Below, in pieces: positions 3,001 to 6,000 of a stretch of DNA of 64,000 nt. The stretch is from Amoebidium appalachense (Eukaryota > Protista > Ichthyosporea). Made by a program: the position numbers and the translations under genes. Location: the NCBI GenBank assembly GCA_963693365.1, contig CAVNZM010000002.1:682001-746000 (forward strand). Direction: 5' to 3'. Under the pieces are notes generated by a model, which had not been told where the DNA came from, did not search any database, and worked only from the letters and a program-made list of their open reading frames with translations. Numbering within the stretch: the stretch's first letter is position 1; each line of letters starts with the position of its first letter.

Positions 3001-6000
3001 TACCCCCCCCCCCCCCCCCCCCCCCCAAACACACACACCCATTTCTTCTTCTTCTCTCCCCCCCCCCCTCCCTCCCCCTGCTCCTCTCCTTCTCCTCCCC
3101 CCCGTGTTATCCGTTTGTTCTTGTGTACTTCGTACTTTTTGACGCATTCAAACCCCCCCCCCCCTTCCCCCTCCCAAACAGCCTCCCTTCCCTCTGGGGA
3201 TTTATCTCACCTCCCTTCCTCGGCTTCTCTTCGATATGTGTCCCCCCCCCCCCCCCCCCCCCCCTTCGTCCCCCTCCCTTCCCCCTCTCTTGCCCCCCCC
3301 CCCCCCTCCCCCTTCTCCCCCCCCCCCCCCCCCCTCCCCCCTTGGGCAATGGTTTTATGTGTGCATGCCTTCTAACCACTATCGTCTTTAACCTCTGATC
3401 GACTCTCTGCTCTCTGGTTGGTCTCAGGGCTTTCCATTTGGGTGTGGATACTATTACCTCCCCCTCCCTCCACTGATCCACTTCCGGTCATCCTATTTTC
3501 CCTCTCCTCCTCCCTAATCTTCTCGTCACCCAATCCCCCCCCCCCCCCCCCCCCCCCCCCCCCCCCCCTCCCCCTTCCCCCCTTCTTTCGTTTTGTGGAT
3601 GGCGTCTGCTCCCTTCAGTGGCTCTGTTCGTGTTTGATTAAGATGGGTGACCCACCCATGTTCAAGTGAAGCAGAAATCTGAGTTGAGACATGTCTGCGG
3701 CGAATGGGTCAAAACTCGGGTACTGTGGATGACGTGCCCACCCTCTTGAGAATAGCCTCTGCTCGTGGTGCATGTCTTCTTCTTGTGCTCTTTCTTGCAT
3801 AACCTGCATTGTGTTGTCCATCCTGGTCTCGCACTTTTCACTCTGCAACACATTCTAACCCCCCCCCCCCCCCCCCCCTCTCCCCTCCCCCCTCCCCCTC
3901 CCCCCGGGCCTAATGTCAGGTTGTTCAAGAGGCTCAGGGCCGTAAGTCCCTTATGGGGCAGGGGACTATTGTGTTTGTGGATGAAATCCACAGGTTCAAT
4001 AAGGCACAGCAGGATGCACTACTGCCCCATGTGGAGGTGTGTGTGTGTGTGTGTGTGTGTGTGTGTGTGTGTGTGTGTGTGTGTGTGTGTGTGTGTGTGT
4101 GTGTGTGTGTGTGTGTGTGTGTGTGTGTGTGTGTGTGTGTGTGTGTGTGTGTGTGTGTGTGTGTGTGTGTGTGTGTGTGTGTGTGTGCGCGCGCGCGTGC
4201 GCGCACGCGCGTGCGTGCGCGCGCGCGTGTATGTGGTTGTGTCTCCCTGTGGTTCCAATTAAGTTTGAGTCCCGAGAAGCTGAAGAAAGAAATGGGAGAG
4301 GGGATGGGGAGGTGTTAAAGAAGATGCAGGGAGGAAAGAGGGAGAGTGGGTTAGAACGGAATGGTTATCTGCATGTGTGTGGCGGTGGTGGTGGTGGTGG
4401 TGGGAGGCCGGAAGGGGGGGGGGGGGGGGGGGAAGGGGTTACACGACTCTTAGTATTTGTGTTTTCTTCGTGCTTGTGAGGATTTAATGTGAGAAGCATG
4501 GAATGCGGAAGCTCTACGGGTGTCTAAGCAAAGGGGGGGTTTTAAGGTACCTAGAACCATGGGATTGCGACGATCGATCTCCGGGCTAAACTCATATGAA
4601 AAACAGGGTTAATCGACAGTAAAAAGGTACCAGGGATATTCGCTAGAGCTATATTTTTTGCATGATAATTATGAAAACAGTGTTTTCTTCAAACTCTCAG
4701 TACAAAAAAATTATAACTCAGTTGGTTCAGCGTCAGCGACCAAAAAACGAAATGACCAAATCTGTTACGTTGTAGTACTATGTAAAATGTACCAGATTTG
4801 GTGCATTTGGTTTTTTTGTTGCCGACGTTGAACCAATTGAGTTATAATTTTTTTAATCTGAGTGTTTGAAGATAACACTATTTTCATAATTATCATGCAA
4901 AAGTTATAGCTCTAGCGCATATCCCTGGTACCTTTTTACTCTCGATGTAACCCTGTTTTTCATATGAGGTTGACCCGGAGATCGATCGCCCCAATTGCAT
5001 GGTTTCAGCTACCTTAAGTTTAGAGTCTCGTGCGTGTAGGCCACCTATATTCATATAGGTGGCATAGGTTCTCTTCTTCTGGCATTCAGATTTAGTTGGG
5101 CCCTGGTCTTGTATTCCAACAACAATTCTTTACATTGTCACTTCCACATAACGCACACAAACAAAAGACGCTAACATAAATACCCCCATCCCCCCCCCCC
5201 CCCCCCCTCCCCCCGGCGCCTCCCACCAAATCCTCCAACACATACACATATTCCCCATCTTTTCCCCCTCAAAAATCACACACACACTCTCTCTAATACC
5301 CCTCTTTTCTTTAACACACACGTATGCCCCCTCCCACGCCACCCCACCCTCACCCGACCACACACGTACACACACACACGCACAAAACACGCACATACAC
5401 ACATACACACACACAGACCAACACATGCATACAAAGTACACCCCCCCCCCCCCCCACACACACACACAAACACACACATACCCCCCCCCCCCCCCCCCCC
5501 CCCACACACACACACAACAAACACACATACAAAACACCCACGCACACAGAGGGGTGAGGTGACGCTGATTGGGGCCACAACCGAGAATCCCTCATTCAGT
5601 TGCAATGCTGCCCTCTTGAGCAGATGCCGTGTGTTTGTGCTCGAAAAGCTCAAGCCGGAGGAGGTGTGTTTGTGTGTTTGTGTGTGTGTGTGTGTGTGTG
5701 TGTGTGTCCCTCTCTCTCTCTCTCTCTCTCTCTTCTCTCTTTGTGTGTGTTTGTTTGTTTGTTTGGTGTGTGTGTGTGTGTGTGTGTGTGTGTGTGTGTG
5801 TGTGTGTGTGTGTGTGTGTGTGTGTGTGTGTGTGTGTGTGTGTGTGTGTGTGTGTGTGTGCAGATGTGGGTGTGCAGATGTGTGTGTGCGTGCGCGCATG
5901 CCTGTGTGTGTCTGTGCATGTGTGCGTGCGTGTTTACGGGTATGTCTGTGTTCGTGCATGAGTGCATGCCTATTTGGGGGGGGGGGGGCGGGGGCGGGGT

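Follow-up and report, generated by a model that had tools for sequence, protein, structure and literature searches.

What kind of RNA is encoded at positions 3640-3740 of a 64,000-nucleotide stretch of the Amoebidium appalachense genome (contig CAVNZM010000002.1, positions 682,001 to 746,000; hereafter the window), where a structured motif shared with positions 31355-31455 lies near the 3′ end of a mobile repeat? A preliminary description had read both sites as a kink-turn (K-turn) hairpin with a covarying long-range pairing, and had offered a reverse transcriptase (RT) recognition signal, a ribonucleoprotein scaffold or a ribozyme as its role. Our analysis agrees with its broader claim that a mobile element carries, close to its 3′ end, a structured RNA under selection, and a ribozyme was among its options. 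The RNA at 3640-3740 is likely to be part of a hammerhead ribozyme core whose strands are non-circularly permuted. Judging from sequence, we consider it probable that this is a self-cleaving, strand-split hammerhead carried by a Penelope-like element (PLE).

Taking the two copies and their family together, all hammerhead core words and six helices are present. They are encountered in the order stem II 5′ strand; cleavage triplet GUU with the stem I strand; stem II 3′ strand with GAAA and stem III; and stem I′ with CUGANGA. Positions A9 and G10.1 lie on separate strands, with the core opened between them by an extra helix IV and a hairpin V, and stems I and II are pseudoknots in the strand-split RNA. 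The parts are located as follows.

3616 to 3623, plus strand: copy 1, 5′ strand of helix IV, pairing with 3754-3761 (the strand after A9) in 7 of 8 pairs
3627 to 3647, plus strand: copy 1, hairpin V, paired at 6 of 7 positions; one U separates it from G10.1
3649 to 3654, plus strand: copy 1, stem II 5′ (10.x) strand, pairing with 3705-3710 in 6 of 6 pairs
3657 to 3736, plus strand: copy 1, long arm, comprising helix VI (3657-3664 / 3730-3736), K-turn (3665-3670 / 3727-3729) and extended stem III (3671-3684 / 3714-3726)
3683 to 3688, plus strand: copy 1, predicted cleavage triplet GUU (3683-3685, with the cut after 3685) and the strand of stem I (3686-3688; partner 3743-3745)
3711 to 3714, plus strand: copy 1, positions 12-15.1, reading AAAA, with G12 lost
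3746 to 3752, plus strand: copy 1, core positions 3-9, reading UUGAGAA, U3 with A8
31328 to 31480, plus strand: copy 2 of the ribozyme-like RNA, helices IV (31328-31338 / 31468-31480), V (31341-31361) and II (31363-31368 / 31420-31425)
31369 to 31453, plus strand: copy 2, arm, comprising helix VI (31369-31378 / 31445-31453), K-turn (31379-31384 / 31442-31444) and stem III (31385-31397 / 31429-31441)
31396 to 31466, plus strand: copy 2, core, comprising GUU (31396-31398), stem I (31399-31401 / 31457-31459), GAAA (31426-31429) and core positions 31460-31466, with A at position 8

In copy 2 the 5′ strand of helix IV is followed by hairpin V, a single U, the stem II 5′ strand beginning with G10.1 (31363), helix VI, the K-turn and stem III, whose 13-bp strand ends in GUU. 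The stem I strand, a variable loop and the stem II 3′ strand come next, and the RNA then returns through GAAA, stem III, the K-turn, helix VI and stem I′ to the core and the 3′ strand of helix IV. Free folding of copy 2 yields helices IV, V, VI and III.

The earlier observations at the two sites largely stand, with a changed meaning. The long-range complementarity is exactly where it had been placed (UGACCCA 3648-3654 with UGGGUCA 3705-3711; UGACCUA 31362-31368 with UAGGUCG 31420-31426), including the compensatory change from C-G (3653-3706) to U-A (31367-31421), although its outermost pair belongs to the hammerhead core (G12). The hairpin stem pairs at 13 of 13 positions (31385-31397 / 31429-31441), but what had been counted as a 14th pair is again hammerhead core (H17, A14). 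The K-turn words AGU-GA-A (3665-3670, 31379-31384) and G-GA (3727-3729, 31442-31444) occur in both copies. The identity of the long-range pairing with hammerhead stem II had gone unrecognized, because the CUGANGA core (3746-3752 and 31460-31466, just beyond the sites as first drawn), GAAA, the cleavage triplet and stem I had all been missed.

The RNA was compared with the hammerhead consensus (paired 1.1-2.1 and 10.1-11.1, core, stems I-III) of Perreault 2011 (PMC3088659; here and below, papers are cited for those excerpts of them that were accessible). The core C3 U4 G5 A6 N7 G8 A9 is found at family level. G12 A13 A14, A15.1-U16.1 and H17 are found in copy 2 and not in copy 1, which has A12, and pairs 1.1-2.1 and 10.1-11.1 are G-C in both. 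Stem I has 3 bp, stem II 6 bp and stem III 8-13 bp. Copy 2 fits every position of that consensus except for the A at position 8. The step from A9 to the stem II 5′ strand within 1-2 nt, common to all six permutations described so far (PMC10085705), is absent: the full stem II partner lies upstream and the strand after A9 forms helix IV.

A descriptor for the strand-split order, written after the copies had been seen, matches the two copies alone in the window and nothing in 40 shuffled windows. The copies align at 79.6% identity over 142 nt (E 3e-26). Nine of 38 model pairs differ between them: two by two-sided changes, one each in stems I and II, three by one-sided changes that keep pairing, and four that are broken in copy 1. 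The folding energy of the copy 2 hairpin is better than that of 200/200 shuffles (z -3.5), that of the copy 1 hairpin does not surpass all of its shuffles (z -0.75), and the 111-nt spans of both copies are ordinary (z -1.35, -0.41). The Rfam search that had been proposed as a check gave no match at the gathering score anywhere in the window. Below that score the two copies alone gave 5 and 3 chance-level matches (best E 0.42), among them a partial Hammerhead_1 (E 4.5) that pointed to stem II and GAAA. Classic type I, II and III hammerhead readings were rejected from the sequence, as were those as a hepatitis delta virus (HDV)-like ribozyme, a selenocysteine insertion sequence (SECIS), a box C/D RNA or U3.

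The window is eukaryotic and intron-rich, and it holds several copies of the repeat that carries the RNA.

3616 to 3858, plus strand: copy 1 of the repeat, aged and 5′-truncated, with a 20-nt C run following its end; in an intron of an MgsA/WRNIP1-like gene
30880 to 31566, plus strand: copy 2 of the repeat, beginning at 30880 or further upstream, with five C behind it; the surrounding intron belongs to a PNKP-like gene
57657 to 57830, minus strand: diverged, truncated relative that has kept, in unchanged order, GAAAC, the G-GA strand of the K-turn and CUGAUGA without loss (at 57788); a C run marks its end
41043 to 41120, plus strand: fragment beginning in a C run at stem I′, core UUGAGGA, U3 with G8
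3103 to 3152, plus strand: short 3′-terminal copy between C runs; 55 nt (3103-3157) are identical to 31517-31571
6633 to 6737, plus strand: 3′-terminal copy between C runs
16966 to 17017, 43647 to 43702, 45553 to 45662 and 60481 to 60595, minus strand: similar 3′-terminal copies between C runs

The exons flanking copy 1 match Pfam RuvB_N, AAA and MgsA_C, and the exon downstream of copy 2 matches PNK3P. The RNA sits some 100 nt before the 3′ end of the repeat. The motif had been thought to rest on only two copies, which proved wrong, as thousands of contigs match the element: 30880-31600 is matched by 8962 contigs in run X1, 9890 in X5, 17 in X15 and 15 in X11. Read depth climbs from 5′ to 3′, ends at 31571 and continues into C runs, and contig joints leading from 31569-31571 back to 31262-31479 reveal head-to-tail tandems. 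Measured against the depth of the contig of copy 1 itself, the copy number is bracketed at roughly 1,000 to 34,000; summed depth is not itself a copy number. No stretch of the metagenome collection matched a pattern specific to this family.

Naiad and Chlamys PLEs are described (PMC8557442) as having 5′ truncation and partial tandems, with (C)n and (CA)n as Chlamys targets. The repeat shows 5′ truncation, partial tandem copies and C runs behind its 3′ end. No open reading frame (ORF) with an N-terminal GIY-YIG, CxC, DK(A) and PLE RT occurs in the window, where the copies are truncated. Since no RT was found, membership is inferred, and the carrier is likely to be a Penelope-like (Naiad/Chlamys-type) retroelement. 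Twenty-three matches to the open frame at 30870-31079 were discarded as spurious, being summed short weak stretches in long proteins. The last 35 nt of the repeat also contain, ahead of the C run, a small hairpin word that is conserved, GTACTTCGTAC (at 31537-31550, and likewise in the short copies); it is possibly an RT-priming signal. In one X1 contig the element is interrupted, at a joint of 31437 with 31427, by a short G-rich repeat resembling telomeric sequence.

Both window copies are likely to be inactive, copy 1 through G12A and copy 2 through the C3.A8 combination. For copy 1 this follows from the replacement by A of G12, the hammerhead general base (PMC12192606). U3 with A8 is a natural active covariation (PMC3088659, PMC4209133). 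At core position 8 (31465) the family has G in 99.5% (X1) and 99.6% (X5) of its depth. Three loose-end consensi from the reads retain GAAAC, and the loop at 3687-3701 varies freely. About 8-9% of the depth keeps the copy 1 stem II letter at 3706, so that this variant of stem II is multi-copy. Missing rows of the read table were not counted as conservation, and the table omits known differences, for example 3711. The 5′ starts of the window copies lie elsewhere than the predicted cut.

The same strand order recurs in Naiads. Their consensi were read by eye from the supplement of PMC8557442 (47 listed places of two GAAAC words; 54 families in all), and their names were taken from neighbouring headers, with Plae seen directly. 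Among the matches listed, the same split order lies at the 3′ end of seven consensi (Bfor, Amil, Aacu, Anas, Plae, Obim and Ovul), whose stem II varies as GGCCCA/UGGGCC, GGCUCC/GGAGCC, GGCCCC/GGGGCC and GACACC/GGUGUC, with mismatches in Aacu. Three others among them (two from Pristionchus, one unnamed) have the plain type-CSG order, which is known from just two sequences in the accessible text of Eckert 2023 (PMC10085705). In the same supplement Naiad-2_Movir and the Darwinula Naiads have an apparent GAA before CUGANGA and more complex inserts.

A gapped pattern search returned 7 viral and at least 120 metagenome loci; the viral ones are chance matches. One coral-type family accounts for 87 of the 127 loci listed. 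Stems II, III and I are jointly present in 54/86 rows of this family vs 0/40 unrelated rows (126 parsed, among the matches listed). In the 76 of 87 coral-type loci with full flanks, pairing is 0.90 for stem III, 0.93 for I, 0.83 for IV, 0.94 for V and 0.95 for VI, and the cleavage site is GUA in 66/76 of these listed rows; the search pattern itself dictated the core words and most of stem II, which are not counted as evidence. Two coral subfamilies (40 and 36 rows) differ at 8 of 47 pairs, four times by two-sided changes (in stems I, IV and VI), twice by one-sided changes that keep pairing and twice by a pair broken in one of them. When 30 indel-free coral rows were picked by hand, 95% of cells paired vs 29-45% for slid partners, and cells with a two-sided change exceeded all 500 shuffles.

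In three coral-type loci (L039, L062 and L077) the C-terminus of an RT ends some 220-300 nt upstream of the RNA. Among the homologues of this RT are proteins with coral names and full-length proteins in which N-terminal GIY-YIG, CxC and DKA precede the RT. The N-terminal features are Naiad marks (PMC8557442). For the coral-type loci the complete arrangement (GIY-YIG, CxC, DK(A), PLE RT) was found through homologues P0126 and P0155. A plain alignment of the window and coral RNAs misaligns their middle part.

The predicted K-turn follows the standard sequence rules, with a 3-nt bulge between two helices, 1b.1n as G.A, 2b.2n as A.G and G at 3n, a nucleotide that allows ion-induced folding (McPhee's rule, PMC4382518). 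Its words are identical in both window copies, and the relative at 57788 retains the G-GA strand; a divergent loose-end subfamily has GA on both strands and U at 3b and 3n, in an ambiguous register. In coral Naiads, however, a plain 8-nt bulge takes its place, so that the shared feature is a bend and not the K-turn itself. The K-turn may fold the long arm of stem III back so that it approaches stems I and II. Cleavage would occur 3′ of GUU, after 3685 or its copy 2 equivalent 31398, and would free element transcripts from host RNA or tandem read-through RNA, as hypothesized for PLE hammerheads (PMC8557442). The active form may consist of two tandem neighbours, the tip of one docked on the base of the other; cutting would in that case be confined to two-copy (pseudo-long terminal repeat) transcripts.

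Several results weigh against a split hammerhead of Naiad type. For copy 1, energy alone does not give the model fold, and neither window copy holds the full hammerhead core. Stem I has just 3 bp, H17 is U, and the break between A9 and G10.1 falls outside Eckert's block model. Contigs, the only material in which the predicted cut was sought, give no truncation peak there. Naiad RT proteins find nothing in the window under E 0.08, and the 27 homologue candidates for the frame at 30870-31079 include none that scores, with no match to Pfam or the Atlas. In the supplement of PMC8557442 no Chlamys place among the matches listed has the split order. The coral covariation comes down to two subfamilies and about four events, the number of pairs with a two-sided change not exceeding shuffles (5 vs 5.2). 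The coral covariance model leaves both window copies undetected (best E 0.31, elsewhere), which leaves topology and short words as the grounds for kinship with Naiads.

The same fold might be active as a monomer, closed by the K-turn and fraying of helix VI, with the K-turn replacing the loop I-loop II contact. The standard K-turn with G at 3n and the first two pairs of helix VI, broken in copy 1, favour such closure, and type-SGC ribozymes with a similar connectivity puzzle cleave as single transcripts (PMC10085705). Yet stem II passes into helix VI without a linker, and a crude straight-stack estimate with stem II stacked on III, as in the classic fold, leaves the monomer 23-27 Å short; on the same estimate melting 3 bp of helix VI would lower this to about 8 Å. 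Naiad_Plae, moreover, has no bend element, its stem II leading straight into distal stem III, and other PLE hammerheads are dimer-dependent (PMC4209133). For these reasons, namely the linkerless stem II, Naiad_Plae and the dimer dependence, we lean slightly towards docking of tandem copies, given activity, and regard cutting by a monomer as somewhat unlikely. More improbable is a hammerhead-derived RNA without catalysis that serves as an RT-binding or 3′-end signal, its K-turn bound by an L7Ae-family protein. The location about 100 nt from the 3′ end would suit that role; the core is split where a break had been assumed impossible (PMC10085705), PLE hammerheads cleave poorly in vitro (PMC4209133), and the accessible text of Craig 2021 (PMC8557442) reports no canonical ribozyme in Naiads. 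Against it, distant families retain G8, G12 and an NUH triplet beside stem I, a conservation not required of a binding scaffold, and many copies begin downstream of the RNA, so inserted DNA does not need it.

The identity of the carrier was weighed in the same way. A long or short interspersed nuclear element (LINE or SINE) or a retrozyme-type repeat that acquired the RNA would explain why the window has no visible RT and at least 490 nt without a recognizable ORF, and would agree with the negative coral model; the C-run flanks, partial tandems and 5′ truncation nevertheless fit the Chlamys/Naiad description, and the RNA topology is otherwise seen in Naiads only, which leaves this origin with little probability. 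Least probable by far is an intron-encoded RNA with a K-turn, whether a small nucleolar RNA (snoRNA), a SECIS, an HDV-like ribozyme or a riboswitch. In its favour, each copy lies in an intron in the sense orientation of its host gene, GUGA...GGA presumably resembles SECIS and box C/D cores, and GGCGAAUGGG in copy 1 is what we take to be a likeness to the HDV 3′ end. Set against this, Rfam gives only the chance-level matches noted above, no RUGAUGA/CUGA pair and no AA on the 5′ side of the loop are present, an HDV P3/L3 is lacking, copy 2 has U at the HDV catalytic C, and the RNA belongs to a mobile repeat. The self-cleaving split hammerhead of a PLE-type element is the reading that we consider probable. 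Its boldest form, which we advance only tentatively, is a seventh natural hammerhead wiring in which two tandem copies would build an A9/G10.1-split core, a protein-bindable K-turn setting the angle. It would be the missing ribozyme of the entire N-terminal-endonuclease Penelope clade, here (C)n-targeting, and would cut only transcripts that span two terminal repeats.

Elsewhere in the window, 17372-17584 and its neighbours at 15326-16893 (minus strand) are exons of a gene with several apparent RGS domains in a row; one exon matches Pfam RGS. Exons at 59096-59242 and 61219-61359 (minus strand) are N-acetyltransferase-like, with a weak FR47 match, and those at 42273-45870 (minus strand) encode what we take, by eye, to be a Nudix-type hydrolase. 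Within the MgsA-like gene, 4557-5001 is AT-rich, and its halves resemble by eye a long inverted repeat, like a miniature inverted-repeat transposable element. Local tandem or direct repeats of 100-290 nt and 75-92% identity occur at 49689-50231 and 51575-52059, at 24448-24813, and at 21614-21838 with 22360-22597. Inverted repeat pairs of 84-86% identity (55075-55145 with 55502-55575; 25439-25521 with 29772-29854) are possibly DNA transposon ends.

We found no published description of the split order in the open-access literature; the supplements of Eckert 2023 could hold such sequences, and bioRxiv 10.64898/2026.07.22.740005, as far as accessible, does not treat it. If the reading is true, it would overturn what has been published on Naiad-type Penelope elements, namely that they have no hammerhead, and would explain why some are listed as 'half core'. 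It would also add a topology that the permutation block model had excluded by assumption, and a natural self-cleaving RNA with a K-turn, perhaps protein-gated. The role of the Penelope ribozyme, cutting as a monomer or only in tandem, becomes testable. Standard Rfam and RNAmotif searches miss the split order, so genome ribozyme counts are likely to be low.

Among known systems, the predicted K-turn resembles Kt-7-type standard kink-turns in its 3-nt bulge followed by G.A, A.G and then A.G at 3b.3n, and differs in lying inside a ribozyme arm instead of ribosomal RNA or a riboswitch. Naiads share with the window repeat 5′ truncation, partial tandems and, in the seven consensi listed, the split topology at the 3′ end; ctenophore and coral families also share words before hairpin V and before G10.1. 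They differ in their (TA)n targets, against (C)n here, and the excerpts of Craig 2021 (PMC8557442) state that Naiads and most Chlamys are without canonical hammerheads, some being listed as core or half core. Coral Naiads have in addition a 6-bp stem I, a GUA site and the bulge instead of the K-turn. Chlamys PLEs are alike in (C)n and (CA)n insertion, 5′ truncation, head-to-tail copies and non-autonomous members, but not in RNA order at any place listed. The minimal type I hammerheads of canonical PLEs (Cervera and de la Pena 2014, PMC4209133) resemble the window RNA in terminal-repeat location, likely dimer dependence, U3-A8, a long stem II and a short stem I. Their order is the classic circular one with a tiny palindromic stem III, whereas here stem III has 13 bp and dimerization would proceed through stems I and II.

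A further close parallel lies in the permuted hammerheads of Eckert 2023 (PMC10085705), which recognizes six permutations and assumes that CUGANGA and its adjacent stem strands are inseparable; its main text mentions no K-turn and Penelope solely in a reference. With type SGC (HRIMA-1 and variants) and type CSG the window RNA shares the cyclic order of its three blocks (site, GAAA, CUGANGA), the pseudoknot nature of stems I and II, and a stem I strand joined to the stem II 3′ strand. The 5′-3′ order of site, GAAA and CUGANGA is that of type SGC, whose members pose a similar long-range connectivity puzzle and do cleave. Here, in contrast, block C is split, with the stem II 5′ strand upstream and IV and V between A9 and G10.1, a K-turn lies in the stem III arm, and the carrier is a eukaryotic genomic repeat. 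On this comparison the window RNA would work like type SGC, yet it is no member because its block C is split.

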